This document shows, piece after piece, positions 3,836 to 43,129 of a DNA stretch of 43,891 nucleotides. The position numbers and the translations under genes are program-made. This stretch comes from Escherichia phage vB-Eco-KMB35, in sequence record OR525704.1; one strand, 5' to 3'. Each line of letters starts with the position of its first letter. Position 1 is the first letter of the stretch. A model generated the notes under the pieces. It saw only the letters and a list, made by a program, of their open reading frames with translations, was not told the origin of the DNA and did not search any database.

Positions 3836-4296
3836 TGATGGGCTTTTTCAAAGTAACTGACGTACCGTCTCGTCGCGTAGTCCAGTACGCCCGCGTGTCT
3901 GGCTCTGGCGAGAACGTGGTATTTATTGAGGACGAAAGTGTACTCGGTACACCGGTAGATGATATGCCGTTTGCAGATAAAACCGGTATTGCGTTGCCCG
4001 CCGCCGGTATGCTTTATGAAATTCCGTATCTGGCGGACGCTGGCGACGTGTATTTCTCTGCGCAACCGCAGGACGCTGAACTGGCGGGCGGCAGCGCAAC
4101 CATCACTGTCGAGGTTAAGGCAGGCAAAGCGCCGTATTCTCTGACCTGGTACAAAGACGGTAAGGAAGTGGTGAATGCGCCTGAGGAGGCTCTGTCTCTG
4201 ACGGTTAATGCGGTCGGCGAATACTTCGTTAAAGTTACTGATGCCGATGGAGTAGAGGCGGTAAGCAAAGCGGCGAAGGTTACTAAGCCAGAATGA
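3835..4296 (+). CDS. Ig-like domain protein (possible head decoration or minor structural protein)
   Basis: 153 aa; motif TWYKDGKEV typical of bacterial Ig-like domains; start overlaps previous stop (TAATGATG). Confidence 0.5.
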   Translation: MMGFFKVTDVPSRRVVQYARVSGSGENVVFIEDESVLGTPVDDMPFADKTGIALPAAGMLYEIPYLADAGDVYFSAQPQDAELAGGSATITVEVKAGKAPYSLTWYKDGKEVVNAPEEALSLTVNAVGEYFVKVTDADGVEAVSKAAKVTKPE

Positions 4297-4297
4297 T

Positions 4298-4326
4298 AAA
4301 AGGCCCCATTATGGGGCCTTAGTTTT
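4298..4326. terminator. Bidirectional hairpin ggcccc-attat-ggggcc between convergent genes
   Basis: GC stem flanked by A-run upstream and ttagtttt downstream. Confidence 0.6.
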
Positions 4327-4529
4327 CAACGGAATCTTGTGTTTAAATCCTGCTCATGGACAACCCTCAGAACAGTGTCATAATCCCCGTATCTTCCAGG
4401 TTCAAATATATCTAATGCCTTGTAAGCAGACATTGCGTCAGGGAAAACCTGCAGAACCTTTTTAACCCGGCACAAGTCACCGTCGAACTCTTCATCGAAC
4501 TCTTGAACTACTTCGCAAATTGCATACAT
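4326..4529 (-). CDS. Hypothetical small acidic protein (67 aa), reverse-oriented moron-like gene
   Basis: ATG at 4529 preceded by GGAGGTG RBS and the 32-bp promoter element; ends at bidirectional terminator. Confidence 0.6.
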   Translation of the reverse strand: MYAICEVVQEFDEEFDGDLCRVKKVLQVFPDAMSAYKALDIFEPGRYGDYDTVLRVVHEQDLNTRFR

Positions 4530-4553
4530 TTTTCACCTCCTGTTTAAGTTAAC

Positions 4554-4585
4554 TGAATAGTACCCTATTATATTGGGGTGTGCAA
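4554..4585 (-). promoter_or_regulatory. Promoter element family A (TTGCAC-N17-TACTAT), copy 1
   Basis: Minus-strand sense ttgcacaccccaatataatagggtactattca; 32 nt identical to 13678..13709; directly upstream of gene 4326..4529. Confidence 0.6.
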
Positions 4586-4651
4586 ACTATTTATTTACGT
4601 ATTCCAGTTATTCCTCCGAATTGTAAATGTTGGAATAAACTATTCGAATAG

Positions 4652-4680
4652 TTGACTTTTCACTAAAAATATGATAAGCT
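4652..4680 (+). promoter_or_regulatory. Putative sigma70-like promoter TTGACT-N17-TAAGCT
   Basis: Hexamers at 4652-4657 and 4675-4680 with a 17-nt AT-rich spacer. Confidence 0.3.
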
Positions 4681-4858
4681 CCACCTGAGCTTGTGAAGTA
4701 TGAACAAGCGACCGCGGCGCGGGCAGGTAACGGAGCGGGACGTAAGTCCTGAGTGTAGTTACGCTGACGCGTTCGGAAGGGCCATACTCTATTGCTTGTG
4801 TAAAAAGTAACTGGTTTACTGAGATTACGCCGTTTCTATGTTTAAATGATAAGGACTA

Positions 4859-4888
4859 GCGCCCCGCTTTATGGCGGGGCTTTACTTA
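4859..4888 (+). terminator. Intrinsic terminator gccccgc-tttatg-gcggggc then tttacttat
   Basis: 7-bp GC stem and T-rich tail just upstream of the Rz start. Confidence 0.55.
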
Positions 4889-4904
4889 TCGAGAAAGGGG
4901 AAAC

Positions 4905-5291
4905 ATGAATCTTAAAGCAACTGTCGTAGCAGGAGCATGTTTCATCATCCTGGTTTACGCACACGGCATCTACCAGTATCGCAGCGGATGGAACGAAGGC
5001 CGGGCTAATCTCGTTTCGCAGCAACAGCAGAAAGCACAGGCTGAGTTAGCGAAGAAAACACAACGGCAGCAGCAGGATGAATCGAAGGCCGCCGCCGCTG
5101 ACAACGAAGGCAAGACGAAATCAGAGGTGATTACCCGTGAAGTCGTTAAGTACATTAAAACGCCTGGTCGCAGCGTGTGCACTTTTGACCCTGAGCGCGT
5201 GCAGCTCAAGTCCCGCGCCGTCGCCAACGCCAATTCCATCCCCGGATACGACGATGATGCAGCCGCCGTGCAAACTGGCGCAGCCAAGTAG
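4905..5291 (+). CDS. Rz-like inner-membrane spanin (i-spanin)
   Basis: 128 aa; N-terminal TM helix (VVAGACFIILVYAHGIY), Q/A/K-rich coiled coil, periplasmic Cys; overlapping +1-frame lipoprotein gene. Confidence 0.7.
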   Translation: MNLKATVVAGACFIILVYAHGIYQYRSGWNEGRANLVSQQQQKAQAELAKKTQRQQQDESKAAAADNEGKTKSEVITREVVKYIKTPGRSVCTFDPERVQLKSRAVANANSIPGYDDDAAAVQTGAAK

Positions 5292-5400
5292 CGACGCTGA
5301 TGAGGATTTGGCCGTCGACGTTCAGAATGCTGAATGCGTACGGCAACTGAGACTGAAAGTGTTCATGTTGCAGGATTACGTGAGGAATATTCTGGAATAG
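5137..5400 (+). CDS. Rz1-like outer-membrane lipoprotein spanin (o-spanin)
   Basis: 87 aa; signal peptide with lipobox LSAC, proline-rich mature part (SPAPSPTPIPSP); starts inside Rz in another frame and extends past it. Confidence 0.65.
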   Translation: MKSLSTLKRLVAACALLTLSACSSSPAPSPTPIPSPDTTMMQPPCKLAQPSSDADEDLAVDVQNAECVRQLRLKVFMLQDYVRNILE

Positions 5401-5482
5401 TTGCCTTGCATGTTGGAATAATTTATTCTTGACATGTAAATCCGGGTGGCCCGGATTCCAACGTCCAGGGGACATACTGACT

Positions 5483-6184
5483 ATGAATCGTTTTTTACGT
5501 TATCCGTTCCAGGAAGAAGCTGGAGCAGAAGATAAAGCTGGTGGCGGTGACGCTCCTAAAATGTTCACCGCTGAAGAAGTTCAGGCGCTGATTGAGAAAG
5601 AAGTTGCCGGGCTTAAGGCTAATCAGGAAGCATTGTTGGCGGAGAAGAAAGAAGCCGCTCGCAAAGCAAAAGAGGCCGAAGAAGAACGGCAGCGCGCGCA
5701 CCAGGAGGCGTTAAAAGCCGCTGGTAAGATGGATGAGTTCGAAAAGACGATTCGTAGCCAGTACGACCCTGTGTTAGCCGAGAAAGACGGTCGCATCTCC
5801 AGAATGGCAGAGCGTATCCTCGGCAGCGAACGTAAAGCGGTGCTAGGCTCTTTCGCGGGTGACTTTATTACCCCAGAAGCAGTGGACATTCTTGCGCCGT
5901 TCGTTAAGACTGAGTTCGAAGGCGATGATGTGGTTACTAAGTTTGTTGGTGCAGACGGTAACGTAATCACGACTGACCCGGAACAGTTCCGCAAATACCT
6001 GCGCGAACACAAGGCGTTTTCGCATTTGATCAAAGCAAATGCAGCTTCCGGCGGCGGGGCTTCCGGTAGCAAAGGCGGCGGGGCCGCACCAGCGTTTAAA
6101 GACATGAGTGAAGCAGAGCGTTTAGCCCTGTATAAATCGAACCCTGCCGAATTTGAACGGCAACTTAAAGCCCTGAGGAAATAA
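5483..6184 (+). CDS. Scaffolding protein
   Basis: 233 aa from ATG 5483 (track ORF uses upstream TTG); Ala/Glu/Lys-rich helical protein immediately upstream of major capsid gene. Confidence 0.6.
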   Translation: MNRFLRYPFQEEAGAEDKAGGGDAPKMFTAEEVQALIEKEVAGLKANQEALLAEKKEAARKAKEAEEERQRAHQEALKAAGKMDEFEKTIRSQYDPVLAEKDGRISRMAERILGSERKAVLGSFAGDFITPEAVDILAPFVKTEFEGDDVVTKFVGADGNVITTDPEQFRKYLREHKAFSHLIKANAASGGGASGSKGGGAAPAFKDMSEAERLALYKSNPAEFERQLKALRK

Positions 6185-6186
6185 TA

Positions 6187-7236
6187 ATGGCAATTACCAC
6201 TATCGGCGATATCGTAACTGGCAACATCCCGGTCCTGGCGTCTTATATGACCGAGGACCCGGTAGAAAAAACCGCGTTCTTCCAGTCTGGTATTCTGACC
6301 CCGACCCCGTACGCTGCCGAGATTGCCCGCGGCCCGTCCAACGTCGCTAATATTCCTTTCTGGAAAGCGATTGATACCTCTATCGAGCCGAACTACTCGA
6401 ACGACGTATACCAGGACATCGCCACCCCGCGTAACGTGCAGACCGGCGAGATGATGGCGCGCGTTGCGTACCTGAACGAAGGTTTCGGTCAGGCGGATTT
6501 GACCGTTGAACTGACCAGCCAGAACCCGCTGCAATCCGTAGCGTCACGTCTGGATAACTTCTGGCAGCGTCAGGCACAACGCCGTCTGATTGCTACCGCG
6601 CTCGGGCTGTACAATGGCAACGTAGCCGCTACCGACGCATACCACGAGCAGAATGACATGGTAATCGACGTGTCTGCTACTCTGGGCTTCGATGCGGGCG
6701 CGTTCATCGACGCCACCCAGACTATGGGCGATGCTCTGATGGGCAACGGCGGTGAAGTGCTGGGGGCTATCGCGATGCATAGCTTCGTTTATGCGCAGGC
6801 ACGTAAGCAGCAGCTTATCGACTTCATCCGTGACGCGGACAACAACACCATGTTCGCCACCTACCAGGGCTACCGCGTGATTGTTGACGACAGCATGACC
6901 GTAGTCGGCACTGGCCCGACCCGTAAGTTCATCTCCATCATCTTCGGCAACGGCGCTATCGGTTACGGTGAAGGTTCACCGTCCAACCCGCTGGAATACG
7001 AGCGCGAAGCGTCCCGCGGCAACGGCGGCGGCGTTGAAACCCTGTGGACCCGTAAGACCTGGTTGCTACATCCGTTTGGTTACAGCTTCACCAGTGCAGT
7101 AATCACTGGCAACGGCACCGAGACTACCCCGCGCTCTGCTTCCTGGCAGGACCTGGCGAACGCCTCCAACTGGAACCGTGTGGTTGACCGCAAGCACGTA
7201 CCGATTGCCTTCCTGGTAACTGGTGTCGGTGCTTAA
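6187..7236 (+). CDS. Major capsid protein
   Basis: 349 aa, follows scaffold, strong terminator downstream, high-expression codon pattern. Confidence 0.75.
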   Translation: MAITTIGDIVTGNIPVLASYMTEDPVEKTAFFQSGILTPTPYAAEIARGPSNVANIPFWKAIDTSIEPNYSNDVYQDIATPRNVQTGEMMARVAYLNEGFGQADLTVELTSQNPLQSVASRLDNFWQRQAQRRLIATALGLYNGNVAATDAYHEQNDMVIDVSATLGFDAGAFIDATQTMGDALMGNGGEVLGAIAMHSFVYAQARKQQLIDFIRDADNNTMFATYQGYRVIVDDSMTVVGTGPTRKFISIIFGNGAIGYGEGSPSNPLEYEREASRGNGGGVETLWTRKTWLLHPFGYSFTSAVITGNGTETTPRSASWQDLANASNWNRVVDRKHVPIAFLVTGVGA

Positions 7237-7252
7237 GGTTAAGCTATAATCG

Positions 7253-7280
7253 AGAGGGACTTCGGTCCCTCTTTTCATTT
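7253..7280 (+). terminator. Hairpin agagggac-ttcg-gtccctc followed by ttttcattt after capsid gene
   Basis: Perfect GC-rich stem, tetraloop, T-run. Confidence 0.65.
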
Positions 7281-7295
7281 ACTAAGAGGTAAATT

Positions 7296-7994: not shown

Positions 7995-8174
7995 ATGGCA
8001 GATAATTATGTAATCCGCGAAAAGTACACCCACGTTGATGTTGTTGACGGTCAGGTTATGCCCGTTCGCGGTGTTGTAGAAGCGGATGAACTGGTAGCGG
8101 TTCAACCGGACAACGAAGAAGCGCACAACAACGGCGGTGGCACTAAGCGTCGCCGCCGTAAGTCAGAGGAATAA
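7995..8174 (+). CDS. Hypothetical small protein with basic C-terminus
   Basis: 59-aa ORF (below track cutoff), RBS AAGGAAAGG, ends GGTKRRRRKSEE. Confidence 0.4.
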   Translation: MADNYVIREKYTHVDVVDGQVMPVRGVVEADELVAVQPDNEEAHNNGGGTKRRRRKSEE

Positions 8175-8177
8175 TTT

Positions 8178-8690
8178 ATGCCGCTAATCGTGGAAACTGG
8201 GGCAATCGTCCCGAATGCCGACAGTTACATTAGTCTGGCTGACGCCCGCGCGTTAGCGGCTAATTATGGCCTTGAGCTACCGGAAGACGATACCGCCGCG
8301 GAGGTGGCCTTGCGTAACGGCGCCACTTATGTCGGGCTTGCGGAACCGCAGATGTGCGGTCGCCGGGTATCCGCCGAACAGTCTCTGGCGTACCCACGTA
8401 CGGGAACAACACTGAACGGCTTCACTGTAGCGGATAATGATATTCCGTCGCAGTTAATCCGGGCGCAGGTAATCGCCGCTGTTACATATGGCGCAGGAAC
8501 TGATGTTCGGGCTAACTCTGATGGGCGTTCCGTGCAGACTGAGCGCGTAGAAGGCGCGGTGACCGTGACATACTTCAACAACGGCAACAGCGGAGCTACA
8601 ACTGCGATTACCGCCGCGGACGACGCTTTACGCCCGTTACTGTGCAGCGGTCTTAACAATGGCTTCTCATTTAACGTGTACCGGGGTTAA
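8178..8690 (+). CDS. Head-tail connector / adaptor protein (putative)
   Basis: 170 aa; position between head and tail genes. Confidence 0.45.
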   Translation: MPLIVETGAIVPNADSYISLADARALAANYGLELPEDDTAAEVALRNGATYVGLAEPQMCGRRVSAEQSLAYPRTGTTLNGFTVADNDIPSQLIRAQVIAAVTYGAGTDVRANSDGRSVQTERVEGAVTVTYFNNGNSGATTAITAADDALRPLLCSGLNNGFSFNVYRG

Positions 8691-10706: not shown

Positions 10707-11873
10707 ATGGCTACAACTCCTTTTAAGGGCGCGAATACCGCGCAATTCTATGTGGCGGAAGTGACCCCGGGTGTAACACCGACTAACCCGGTCTGGTCAC
10801 CATTACGTAACACGGGCGGTGTTCCTGCCATTACCCGCGACACGCTGACCTCCAACGAACTGGACGGCAGCCGTGAAACTACATCCATCCGCACCGGTAA
10901 CAAACAGGTTAGCGGTGAATACGCAATTGAGCTTAGCTCTAAAAGCCAGGACGACTGGTTAGCCGGGGCTTTAGGCTCTACGTGGCAGGCTGGCGCATCT
11001 CTGTCAGGGTTATCGATTACCGTCGCACCGGCTGGCAAGACGTTCACACGTGCCACCGGCAGCTTTATCACTGACGGAGTTGTGGTAGGCGACCTGATTG
11101 CGTTTACCGACTTAACAGGCGATAACGCAAAACCATTTATCGTTACTGCAGTAACAGCTACGGTCGTTACTGGTGCTGGTATCCAACACACCCTGACCAC
11201 CGAGACAAAAACTAGTAAGGCTAAAACTGGCGACACGCTGGAAACCGGTAACACGTGTAAGACGTTCTCTATCCTTACCTGGTACAAAGGCCAGTGCGGC
11301 GGCACTGACGCGTACACGTTAACCAAAGGCGTGGAAGTTTCTGGTTTCACTATTGAGCAGTCAGTTAACGCTATGGTAACCGGCAGCTTCCCATTCATCG
11401 GTCGCAGTCAGGAGATTCTCACTACGCCGCCGACCGGTTCCAACTTCTCATCTATTACTTTTGGTGATGAGCCATTCTCTTCGGTTGACGTTTCCGTGTT
11501 CGATGGCTCTACGCCGTTGCGTTGTGATAGCCTTACCATCACCAACGACAACAGCGCGTCCGCACAGTTCGAACTCGGCAACTCTAACGTTGCGTTTGTG
11601 GAACGTAGCCGCGCAGCTAACACCTTCTCCATCTCCGGTAAGCTGTATGACATGGCTATGATTCAGAAGTTTATCAACGAACAGCAGGTAGAGATTAACT
11701 CTATTCTGGCGGGGGTAAACGGGGCTATGTCTTTCAGTTTGAAACGTGCGGAGCTTACGGCAGTTACCCCAGAGATTGGCGGACCTGAGTCAATCACTCA
11801 GTCCATTGAAGGCCAGGCTACTGGCAACCAGTACCAGTCGTCTATTGTTATTCAGCGTATCACCTACGCATAA
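10707..11873 (+). CDS. Major tail protein
   Basis: 389 aa from ATG 10707 (RBS AAGAGG 8 nt upstream); position before chaperone/tape-measure genes; terminator downstream. Confidence 0.6.
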   Translation: MATTPFKGANTAQFYVAEVTPGVTPTNPVWSPLRNTGGVPAITRDTLTSNELDGSRETTSIRTGNKQVSGEYAIELSSKSQDDWLAGALGSTWQAGASLSGLSITVAPAGKTFTRATGSFITDGVVVGDLIAFTDLTGDNAKPFIVTAVTATVVTGAGIQHTLTTETKTSKAKTGDTLETGNTCKTFSILTWYKGQCGGTDAYTLTKGVEVSGFTIEQSVNAMVTGSFPFIGRSQEILTTPPTGSNFSSITFGDEPFSSVDVSVFDGSTPLRCDSLTITNDNSASAQFELGNSNVAFVERSRAANTFSISGKLYDMAMIQKFINEQQVEINSILAGVNGAMSFSLKRAELTAVTPEIGGPESITQSIEGQATGNQYQSSIVIQRITYA

Positions 11874-11875
11874 AA

Positions 11876-11904
11876 CTAAGGCCCCGAAAGGGGCCTTTTT
11901 TATT
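11876..11904. terminator. Bidirectional terminator ggcccc-gaaa-ggggcc followed by ttttttatt
   Basis: Perfect stem-loop between convergent major tail gene and minus-strand cassette. Confidence 0.7.
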
Positions 11905-13677: not shown

Positions 13678-13709
13678 TGAATAGTACCCTATTATATTGG
13701 GGTGTGCAA
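13678..13709 (-). promoter_or_regulatory. Promoter element family A, copy 2 (identical to 4554..4585)
   Basis: 32-nt exact repeat; TTGCAC-N17-TACTAT in minus-strand sense, upstream of 13652 start. Confidence 0.6.
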
Positions 13710-13816
13710 GTAGTGTGCTAGAATAAGTTTGCGCCTAGTGTCGCACACGAAAAGCGGGTGGTTCCCGCCTGGCGCATTAACCATAACCAGTAACCTCTTA
13801 ACCAAAGGACTAAAGA

Positions 13817-33540: not shown

Positions 33541-33756
33541 ATGCAACCATCTGAACTAGGTATCCGTGTAGAACAACGCCGTAAAGAACTCGGCATCTCC
33601 CAGCGCCGTTTGGCGGCCCTGACCGGCGTTTCCCAGGGCGCGATTAACCAACTGGCACTTGGAGTAACTCAGGACGTCCGCCCGGCAACGCTGTTCAAAC
33701 TGGCGGAAGTTCTGGAAGTAGACGCCAAGTGGCTGGCGTTAGGTGAAGGGGCTTAA
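33541..33756 (+). CDS. Cro/XRE-family helix-turn-helix transcriptional regulator
   Basis: 71 aa; LGISQRRLAALTGVSQGAINQL HTH; divergent from replication operon; AAGGAG RBS. Confidence 0.7.
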   Translation: MQPSELGIRVEQRRKELGISQRRLAALTGVSQGAINQLALGVTQDVRPATLFKLAEVLEVDAKWLALGEGA

Positions 33757-36202: not shown

Positions 36203-36493
36203 TTACCGTTTAGCCAACCCTTCCAGCAAATTTTTATACTCTTCAAAATATTCCTCGACCAAATCATCGCCGAAATAGAAGTCGATATACTCGAGATTAT
36301 CTCTTACGTTAAGCGATGCCGACATGGTGCTTAGTTGGCGTAAGCTAATTAGCTTCATTTCTGTTTCTACGCAGAAAGGCCGGTAGGTATCAAGATGGCA
36401 AGAGATATTGAAGCATAAAGCGAACTCTCCGGCCACGGAGTGAACCATATACACTTCGTTTTCTGCTTTATTGTGGAAAATTACGCCTTTCAT
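36203..36493 (-). CDS. Hypothetical protein (96 aa)
   Basis: ORF in replication operon, overlaps upstream gene stop. Confidence 0.45.
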   Translation of the reverse strand: MKGVIFHNKAENEVYMVHSVAGEFALCFNISCHLDTYRPFCVETEMKLISLRQLSTMSASLNVRDNLEYIDFYFGDDLVEEYFEEYKNLLEGLAKR

Positions 36494-36672
36494 TTCACGT
36501 TCTCCTTAATCCATGCTTCGACTTTATTACGGTCAAATGTTCCCGGTAAACGGCGGCCCATAACCTTAATACAGCAGTCAGGGAATTTGCCGCTGCGCAA
36601 CCAGTTATTAATGGTCTGACGTGTCACCCCGATACGCTCGGCTACCTCATTCTGTGTCATGTAATGTTGCAT
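36490..36672 (-). CDS. AlpA/excisionase-like HTH DNA-binding protein
   Basis: 60 aa from ATG 36672 (RBS AGGGGA); MTQNEVAERIGVTRQTINNWLRSGKFP matches AlpA-type HTH pattern. Confidence 0.6.
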   Translation of the reverse strand: MQHYMTQNEVAERIGVTRQTINNWLRSGKFPDCCIKVMGRRLPGTFDRNKVEAWIKENVK

Positions 36673-37091: not shown

Positions 37092-37123
37092 TTGCACACC
37101 CCAACATAATAGGATACTATTCA
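37092..37123 (+). promoter_or_regulatory. Promoter element family A (TTGCAC-N17-TACTAT), copy 3, rightward early promoter
   Basis: 30/32 identity to copies at 4554 and 13678 in opposite orientation; 30 nt upstream of ORF 37155. Confidence 0.6.
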
Positions 37124-41343: not shown

Positions 41344-41647
41344 ATGAGTAACGTACAGACAATCGCAATAACCGAGGAACTTGAAGCCAAATGTATCGCA
41401 TGGACTATGGGTAATGACCAGGTTGCTATGCGTAAATTTCCAATGAAAATCACAGACATCGAAGCGTAATGACCAGGTTGCTATGCGTAAATTTCCAATG
41501 AAAATCACAGACATCGAAGCATTCAAAGATGCACAACTGATGGCACGTATTGCCGTTGGCAACCTGAGCAACAATATCCCGGCGGACGCGTTCTGGTTCG
41601 CTGCTATGCAGACACTGAAAGCAGCTTATGCAGGAGAGAAGAAATGA
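41344..41647 (+). pseudogene. Small gene split by a 55-bp tandem duplication (N-fragment 41344..41469, C-fragment restart 41483..41647)
   Basis: Removing one 55-bp copy restores a single 82-codon ORF; with both copies the frame shifts and stops at TAA 41467. Confidence 0.55.
41411..41520 (+). repeat. Perfect tandem direct repeat, 2 x 55 bp
   Basis: 41411..41465 identical to 41466..41520; flanking bases differ. Confidence 0.95.
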
Positions 41648-42726: not shown

Positions 42727-42896
42727 TGTTCAGCGACATCAACGCAGCAATCGAAGAAGCAATCTGGCGCCGTTACAACGGCGAGCAACAGCGTCACTTC
42801 TGCCTGGTGCAACGTGGTAACATGGTCGCCGTGGTGCAGGACCGCGATAACAAATATCCGAATGCGATGTGGACAACGAGGAATTTCTTAGGATGA
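42726..42896 (+). CDS. Hypothetical small protein (56 aa)
   Basis: ORF below track cutoff; TAATG overlap with preceding peptide ORF. Confidence 0.35.
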   Translation: MFSDINAAIEEAIWRRYNGEQQRHFCLVQRGNMVAVVQDRDNKYPNAMWTTRNFLG

Positions 42897-43129
42897 TTAC
42901 CAGCATTCCTAACCTGATTAAAGAATATGGCACGATGGCCGAGACATGCCGACAAACCGGCATCAACGAAATGACTATTGCTAAGTACAGCAAAGATGTT
43001 AACTGCGATCGCCACGTAATTTTTAACAACCGTCTGATGACGCACGTTAAGACAAGCCCGGTGTTATTCACGCGCCGGGGTATCACTAAAACAGAGCAAC
43101 GCATTGCTAAAGAGGAGAGTGGGGAATGA
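42893..43129 (+). CDS. Small HTH-like DNA-binding protein upstream of small terminase
   Basis: 78 aa; AETCRQTGINEMTIAKYSK HTH-like segment. Confidence 0.4.
   Translation: MITSIPNLIKEYGTMAETCRQTGINEMTIAKYSKDVNCDRHVIFNNRLMTHVKTSPVLFTRRGITKTEQRIAKEESGE

Follow-up and report, generated by a model that had tools for sequence, protein, structure and literature searches.

A conserved GGAATA inverted repeat at two predicted promoters of the spanin and scaffold/capsid genes in Guernseyvirinae phages

The DNA analysed here is a stretch of 43,891 nt from Escherichia phage vB-Eco-KMB35 (OR525704.1), hereafter the window, which represents a Kagunavirus-type siphophage of the subfamily Guernseyvirinae. 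The element in question is an inverted repeat, GGAATA-N3-TATTC, found at two sites, one upstream of the spanin genes and one upstream of the scaffold gene. At this locus, a 375-nt non-coding stretch separates a 67-aa accessory (moron-type) gene on the minus strand (4529..4326) from the i-spanin gene (4905..5291, plus strand), which overlaps with the o-spanin gene (5137..5400, plus strand; lipobox LSAC, from the translation). After a gap of 82 nt, the scaffold gene starts with its ATG at 5483, followed by the major capsid gene. On the other side, the head morphogenesis and Hoc-like genes end at 4296 and are followed by a bidirectional terminator. No tRNAs were found in the window, and Rfam searches at gathering and permissive thresholds gave no credible match in 4500-5520 or in the whole window. 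The region 4300-5500 is 99.8% identical to that of Escherichia phage SonjaBuckley_Bas74 and has megablast matches in 330 phage records. Approximately 490 GenBank phage records share the region, and the core of the repeat is kept in approximately 490 phage records. For comparison, 58 related loci were collected via the scaffold protein (56-100% identity), together with the whole genomes of SETP3 (Jerseyvirus), Shemara (Cornellvirus; L103), phiEap-2 (L104), Smarc3 and fTaEco01 (L164).

An earlier note on this DNA had reported a repeated 12-mer beside two TTGAC hexamers, and a palindrome. The 12-mer ATGTTGGAATAA is indeed present exactly at 4627-4638 and 5410-5421, both on the plus strand, with no third exact copy in the window. 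The hexamers are also in place, with TTGACT (4652-4657) located 13 nt 3' of the first copy and TTGACA (5429-5434) 7 nt 3' of the second, as is the palindrome tccgggtggcccgga at 5441-5455. As such, a repeated 12-mer is unremarkable, since about 65 exact direct pairs are expected in 43.9 kb on the basis of shuffling, and no enrichment is seen when up to two mismatches are allowed (five copies observed versus 3.1 expected). Only about 0.3 such pairs are expected to lie entirely within the 3.2 kb that are intergenic. Four independent intergenic repeats were found in all, namely this pair and three others that are promoters or terminators. The 12-mer is the left part of a longer inverted repeat of 14-15 bp, GGAATA-N3-TATTC(C). 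Its core, GAATA-N3-TATTC, is found exactly twice in the window (at 4633 and 5416) versus 0.027 times expected, and none of 300 shuffles contained two copies.

Inverted repeat 1 (GGAATA-aac-TATTC) spans 4632..4645 and inverted repeat 2 (GGAATA-att-TATTC) spans 5415..5428. Each is accompanied by further hexamers of the same type. Seventeen nucleotides upstream of inverted repeat 1, the half-sites form a direct repeat, TATTCC-agt-TATTCC (4600..4614; GGAATA-N3-GGAATA on the minus strand), and at site 2 two more hexamers are found in GGAATAttctGGAATA (5384..5399, plus strand), the second of which overlaps the stop codon of the o-spanin gene. Besides one ribosome-binding site at 8168, intergenic GGAATA/TATTCC hexamers occur in the whole window only at these two sites. 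The sequence at 8168-8179, GGAATAATTTAT, is the same as that at 5415-5426 and covers both the ribosome-binding site of the head-tail adaptor gene and its start codon; this match is probably a coincidence. The pairing reported earlier is real and beyond chance, and the 12-mer is a partial view of an operator-like array built on GGAATA-N3-TATTC.

Among the relatives, the 12-mer was not found to be a conserved unit. Only its GGAATA(A/C) part is constant, and the 5' ATGTT is replaced by clade at both sites, by ATTCA, AAAGT or ACGTT at site 1 and by TAAGT, CCTGT or CTTGT at site 2, ATGTT being common to both sites only within Kagunavirus. In four Guernseyvirinae clades (Kaguna, Jersey, Cornell-type and phiEap-2), the half-sites of the inverted repeat are invariant, whereas the flanks and the N3 centre vary, the latter being aac (window, site 1), att (window, site 2), ctt (Jersey, site 1) or aat (Cornell-type and phiEap-2). 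The same holds for the direct repeat at 4600..4614, with invariant hexamers and a variable N3 in these four clades. Such a pattern of invariant half-sites with variable centres and flanks is typical of sites recognised by protein dimers. The layout of site 1 is likewise identical in the four clades, i.e. direct repeat, 16-17 nt, inverted repeat, 6 nt, -35, 14 nt, TGn and TAnnCT. A perfect 16-bp palindrome, AACTATTCGAATAGTT (4638..4653), which overlaps inverted repeat 1 and the -35, is Kagunavirus-specific and not kept in Jersey-type phages (TATTCAAAAAGTAGAC).

Of the four complete genomes SETP3, Shemara, phiEap-2 and Smarc3, only Smarc3 lacks the GGAATA repeat. Phage fTaEco01, considered as a possible motif-negative lineage, proved motif-positive: both sites are kept in spite of an exchanged scaffold/capsid module, whose junction is at the scaffold ATG. 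In this Kagunavirus (5150-5250), the site 2 promoter and both hairpins of the 5' untranslated region (UTR) are intact, and scaffold and capsid come from another lineage. The block of promoter and 5' UTR thus moves with the spanin module, and this block may also serve as a recombination junction. In phiEap-2, inverted copies of the whole unit of direct and inverted repeat (11499-11540 and 11841-11886; left AGAATAactTATTCC..GGAATAactGGAATA, right TATTCCagtTATTCC..GGAATAaatTATTCC) flank a minus-strand accessory (moron) gene and its terminator. A third exact GAATAAATTATTC is present in the first o-spanin codons (ATGAATAAATTATTCCTG) of the Cornell-type relatives L045, L047-L049, L051, L053 and L103 (Shemara), which may be a coding coincidence or an internal site. 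No promoter is annotated at either site in the GenBank relatives, and a literature search gave no earlier description of the GGAATA element.

Inverted repeat 1 is located upstream of a predicted sigma-70 promoter (promoter 1; 4652..4680, plus strand), which consists of TTGACT as the -35, a spacer of 17 nt and the extended -10 TGaTAAGCT (4672-4680), with a predicted start around 4687. It has the features of the extended -10 class, namely a -35 near TTGACA, a spacer of 17±1 nt, TGn and a -10 with A2 and T6, and T.GACT and TG.TA..CT are invariant across three clades in alignment A1 and across all four clades overall. An in silico prediction for Kagunavirus fBC-Eco01 includes the same promoter under the name of host promoter HP1 (PMC9825357). 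The claim that the TTGAC hexamer of site 1 lacks a good -10 is hence wrong. With a start around 4687, the centre of inverted repeat 1 would be at about -48. The repeat ends 6 nt upstream of the -35 and so does not overlap with the core promoter. Promoter 1 would transcribe a structured leader RNA and both spanin genes.

This leader or non-coding RNA (4687..4904, plus strand) is GC-rich and conserved and fills the space between the predicted start and the i-spanin gene. It contains a three-helix hairpin (4712-4776), a single-stranded, invariant GGAAGGGCC (4775-4783) and a terminal hairpin with a weak U-tract (4859-4880). Folded separately, the Kaguna and Jersey leaders give the same three-helix hairpin followed by single-stranded GGAAGGGCC, with clade-specific sequences making up helices P2 and P3. 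For phiEap-2, a single fold read by hand points to a similar arrangement. No Rfam match was obtained for 4687-4904. In some relatives, an open reading frame (ORF) of 36 aa (4700-4810) is annotated 3' of site 1; its ATG region is lost in Jersey-type phages, and the annotated ORF is more likely structured leader RNA. Because the U-tract of the hairpin at 4859-4880 is poor, the spanin genes are probably co-transcribed with the leader.

At site 2, a second sigma-70 promoter is probable (promoter 2; 5401..5429, plus strand), with TTGCCT (5401-5406), a 17-nt spacer and TATTCT (5424-5429), and a predicted start around 5436. TTGnnn-17-TATnnT is found in every relative at the same position, with the -10 ending 10-12 nt before a hairpin. 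Relatives without GGAATA words carry better hexamers in the same place (TTGTTA-17-TATATT in L055, TTGCAT-17-TATATT in L058 and TATATT in Smarc3), L055 and L058 agreeing with the sigma-70 consensus at 9-9.5 of 12 positions versus 8 of 12, with A2 and T6, for promoter 2. The second 12-mer copy lies inside the spacer of this predicted promoter, and inverted repeat 2 overlaps both the spacer and the -10. With a start around 5436, its centre would be at about -14; the -10 hexamer is formed by its right arm. Within 5384..5399, the palindrome GAATATTC is centred at about -47.5 from the predicted start. The scaffold promoter of phiEap-2 carries two repeats, at about -47 and -14, and thereby connects both geometries of the window. 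Promoter 2 would transcribe scaffold, capsid and the downstream head and tail genes. As for the TTGACA hexamer (5429..5434, plus strand), which lies between the -10 and the predicted start, the earlier note was right in that no -10-like hexamer is found 16-18 nt 3' of it, the sequences there (CCGGAT, CGGATT and GGATTC) being part of the GC-rich hairpin. Its role as a -35 is not supported. TTGACA is kept in Kaguna, Cornell-type phages, L050 and phiEap-2; Jersey-type phages have TTGTTA in its place, and L055, L058 and Smarc3 have no counterpart. It also lies 3' of the positionally conserved TTGCCT-17-TATTCT; from its position and distribution, it is probably not a -35.

The palindrome turned out to be not a promoter element but part of a covarying stem-loop 3' of the predicted transcription start. 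This stem-loop, AAUCCGGG-UGG-CCCGGAUU (5439..5457, plus strand), begins roughly 3 nt 3' of where the mRNA is predicted to start. Pairing holds in 94.6% of the cells over 14 distinct variants, and both partners have changed in four of the eight pairs (AU, CG, GC, UA). The covariation score is 0.321 versus 0.072 in shuffles; none of 500 shuffles reaches the observed score, and no slid control comes close to it. Because the outer pairs covary and the first loop base varies freely, selection appears to act on RNA pairing and not on a double-stranded recognition sequence. An intrinsic terminator was ruled out, as AUUCCAACG and not a U-tract comes after the stem, and the scan for terminators makes no call here. 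On the best reading, the CCGGGTGGCCCGG palindrome would be the 5'-terminal stem-loop of the scaffold/capsid mRNA, at its predicted 5' end. In E. coli, 5'-terminal stem-loops of ompA-type leaders stabilise mRNAs. As in these, a GC-rich hairpin lies close to the 5' end of a message that is highly expressed, at a distance of about 3 nt, and its stem is kept by compensatory changes, with the difference that the 5' end is a prediction here. By analogy, the stem-loop probably shields the abundant scaffold/capsid message from 5'-end-dependent decay. A smaller stem-loop, GUCC-agg-GGAC (5463..5473, plus strand), includes part of the scaffold Shine-Dalgarno sequence and has a compensatory GACC/GGUC in L055, L056 and L061.

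From the motif, its specificity for two sites, its conservation and its fixed geometry, all of which are direct observations, we infer with moderate confidence that GGAATA-N3-TATTC(C) and the extra GGAATA hexamers, one to three helical turns upstream, form an operator array for a dimeric, most likely phage-encoded regulator at two consecutive sigma-70 promoters of the host RNA polymerase. At promoter 1, the protein would be placed directly 5' of the -35, as an activator or architectural factor would be, and at promoter 2 over the spacer and the -10, as at an operator, where it could occlude or remodel the binding of RNA polymerase. Both transcription units might thereby be co-ordinated. The earlier proposal of late promoters with an activator site thus survives in part: both sites are promoter regions of late-type genes (the spanins; scaffold and capsid), and they share a conserved cis-element resembling a protein-binding site. 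A single model of an activator upstream of the -35 does not fit both sites, given the different positions of about -48 and -14.

Several points weigh against such an operator array. These two positions demand two modes of action from one protein. In Shemara (6815-7295), the site 1 GGAATA array and its extended -10 promoter have been replaced by a consensus-like TATAAT promoter, which adjoins a phosphatase accessory (moron) gene, with the 3' half of the leader RNA being kept; regulation via the repeat is hence dispensable there. The repeat is also absent from other late operon starts, namely the tail-operon restart (13.7 kb) and the terminase promoter (43.25 kb). Promoter 2 agrees with the consensus at only the 8 of 12 positions given above and, as the right arm of its repeat is the -10, some of the conservation at site 2 could be due to promoter function alone. 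Finally, the literature search found no start mapping or binding results for any relative, the only RNA-seq study being without start-site resolution.

Instead of a phage regulator, a host protein such as Fis or another nucleoid-associated or regulatory enterobacterial protein might bind the repeat and tie the promoters to host physiology, which we consider unlikely. That phages of three host genera (Escherichia, Salmonella and Enterobacter) share the motif would suit a host factor, but the distribution of the motif follows phage clades. Compared to the RcsAB box, the ArgR box and the consensus sequences of Fis, CpxR, EvgA and sigma-54, the repeat gives only partial or off-spacing matches, which are treated as leads only. 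GAAT-N5-ATTC, for instance, is one base off the spacing of the ArgR box, the ARG box having a centre of 4 nt and not 5. The full GGAATA-N3-TATTCC, present as GGAATAAATTATTCC in Cornell-type phages and phiEap-2, is a G-N13-C palindrome with an AT-rich core and so fits the general frame of Fis sites (PMC7166090). However, positions -4/-3 of the repeat are A-T, whereas Fis/NinH-type sites are expected to have pyrimidine-purine steps at -4/-3 and +3/+4, and the copies in the window end in G or T instead of C.

Doubtful, too, is the view that there is no dedicated binder and that the hexamers are AT-rich promoter context (UP-element-like, spacer and -10), the identity of the 12-mers resulting from homogenisation or recombination at module junctions. 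The overlap of the right arm with the -10 at site 2 fits this view, as do the module junction of fTaEco01 exactly at the scaffold ATG, the inverted units around the accessory gene of phiEap-2 and the restriction of a shared ATGTT to Kagunavirus, which suggests local copying. Promoter context does not readily explain half-sites that stay invariant between variable spacers over four clades, with at least five hexamers per site and an identical geometry, nor the absence of the hexamers from all other promoters of the same genome. The model closest to the earlier note, in which the TTGAC hexamers are the -35s of late promoters that lack a -10 and fire only with an activator on the 12-mer just upstream, appears quite improbable. 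It draws on the location of both 12-mers 7-13 nt upstream of TTGAC, on a site 1 repeat that is truly upstream of the -35 and on the retention of TTGACA in Kaguna, Cornell-type phages, L050 and phiEap-2. Yet site 1 has a conserved extended -10, TTGACA is not kept in Jersey-type phages, L055, L058 and Smarc3 and has a GC-rich hairpin in the place of a -10, and the spacing between repeat and TTGAC differs by 6 bp between the sites; in addition, the 5' half of the 12-mer is not conserved and the motif is missing at other late operon starts. That the pair is a functionless chance repeat is barely credible: exact 12-mer pairs are common in such a window and near-matches are not enriched, but both copies are intergenic, and their core is unique to the two sites and kept in approximately 490 phage records, a conservation that already contradicts this view.

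If the operator array is read by a phage protein, the window offers few candidates. Pfam scans of 32 small ORFs gave three possible DNA-binding proteins. An HTH_17 protein (36672..36493, minus strand) was rejected as the binder since, besides the window, it is found among SETP3, Shemara, phiEap-2 and Smarc3 in SETP3 only, which is the pattern of another motif (N6, see below) and not of GGAATA. A Cro/C1-type helix-turn-helix (HTH) protein of 71 aa (33541-33753, plus strand; Pfam HTH_3, E=4e-13; unannotated in Bas74) is present in all genomes including the repeat-negative Smarc3 and is therefore uninformative. Its gene lies on the opposite strand beside the helicase-primase gene, with divergent promoters on its flanks, and its homologues are annotated as regulators in SETP3, Shemara, Smarc3 and fTaEco01. 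The 67-aa minus-strand gene next to site 1 was also rejected as the regulator, as it has no Pfam match and relatives that keep site 1 have other genes there. The third protein is NinH-like (Fis-like; 78 aa, 42893..43126, plus strand), with a Pfam NinH match (E=2.8e-5) below the curated cut-off; a NinH match below the cut-off is given by all four homologues.

The NinH-like gene is one of five small genes that match the pattern of the repeat (present in SETP3, Shemara and phiEap-2, absent in Smarc3). Among near-complete IMG/VR contigs, it was found in 39 of 41 repeat-positive and none of four repeat-negative ones, a hand cross-tabulation which is confounded by shared ancestry and in which the pattern-based search may miss divergent homologues. 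A PDB sequence search with the NinH-like protein gave no match, and its single-sequence structure prediction was unusable (pLDDT 50). PMC7166090 describes lambda NinH as a homodimer resembling Fis, with DNA-bending activity and a preference for G-N13-C sites. The GGAATA repeat resembles sites of Fis and lambda NinH in being a 15-bp pseudo-palindrome with an AT-rich core, in a genome with a NinH-like gene that co-occurs with the motif, and the full palindrome fits G-N13-C; it differs in its inner positions, which are off both the Fis and NinH logos, and in the missing terminal C of the window copies. An upstream position near -48 is typical of Fis-type activation. NinH is not known to have an in vivo target. 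Based on these comparisons, the NinH-like protein is a weak candidate for binding the repeat, a lead and not a finding. Speculatively, and with a low probability, the GGAATA arrays could be the specific in vivo targets of a NinH-type Fis mimic encoded by the phage, which, as a switch that recognises a defined sequence, would bend DNA at -48 of the spanin-leader promoter, sit on the scaffold/capsid -10 and so set the timing or ratio of lysis versus head genes in virulent Guernseyvirinae. If true, this would be the first physiological function and the first defined operator for the NinH family.

In kind, the proposed operator array resembles several known systems. Like the Cro/CI-type operators of lambda, it is made of short dyad-symmetric sites whose half-sites are conserved and whose centre is free, with one copy covering the spacer and -10 and with helical-turn spacing between sites, and small HTH proteins are encoded in the window. 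In contrast to these operators, its second copy is upstream of the -35, it lies in the late structural region of a virulent phage instead of an immunity region, and the distribution of neither HTH protein of the window matches the motif. P2 Cox is a small phage protein that acts on helically phased arrays of short repeats, repressing one promoter and activating another. Phased arrays of short repeats are found here as well, whereas cox-boxes have an unrelated sequence and are direct repeats of 9 bp, and no homologue of Cox was identified here. Unlike in the late promoters of the P2 Ogr/Mu C type, the GGAATA repeat is not found at all late operon promoters, those at 13.7 kb and 43.25 kb being without it. 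As to the defective core promoter of that type, site 1 has a good extended -10, and site 2 is weak (8 of 12) but recognisable.

A second motif family is present nearby. The strongest repeat of the region is a 32-mer at 4554-4585, which is identical at 13678-13709 and inverted at 37092-37123. It holds a divergent promoter, TTGCAC-17-TACTAT (4557..4585, minus strand), that drives the 67-aa accessory gene, and it belongs to a family, TAATAG-N4-CTATTC (N6), located within near-consensus early/middle promoters at 4555, 13679, 26714, 30903, 33452, 33496, 37107 and 38275. Sites 1 and 2 are not members, as the spacing of their GAATA/TATTC is N3. The PHIRE motif tgAATAGTa-ccTATTat-T of fBC-Eco01, attributed in that study to a phage RNA polymerase, represents this N6 family (PMC9825357). 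Contrary to the published label of phage RNA polymerase promoters, no RNA polymerase is encoded by these phages. The PHIRE motif and the GGAATA repeat occur in the same genomes with the kindred half-site word GAATA, and the copy at 4554-4585 is 47 nt upstream of inverted repeat 1; they differ in spacing (N6 versus N3) and in the location of the former inside early/middle consensus promoters. The N6 motif is present in the window, SETP3 and fTaEco01 and absent in Shemara and phiEap-2, a pattern in agreement with that of the HTH_17 gene. Because the latter two carry the GGAATA repeat without the N6 motif, the two elements are independent. Elsewhere in the window, the tail-operon restart (13696-13766), which follows a minus-strand gene island, has its own extended -10 promoter, TTGGGG-16-TGcTAGAAT, and directly 3' of it a nested 5' hairpin, GCGCC..GCGGG-tggtt-CCCGC..GGCGC, i.e. 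the design of the scaffold promoter minus the GGAATA sites. In the early region (41411-41520), a unit of 55 nt is perfectly duplicated in tandem.

Operators at phage promoters and stabilising 5' hairpins are well known, so that the finding is unsurprising in kind; the GGAATA element would be a previously undescribed instance of an ordinary kind of phage regulatory element. The analysis also corrects the record on two points: the motif published as phage RNA polymerase promoters is another one, and the 36-aa ORF is better seen as probable leader RNA. Of the phages isolated for therapy and biocontrol of E. coli and Salmonella, Kagunavirus and Jerseyvirus are among the most frequent. These phages have no RNA polymerase of their own. 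For the timing of their gene expression, a conserved operator-like array at two promoters offers a concrete experimental handle, with a few candidate regulators, two promoters and mutable sites.

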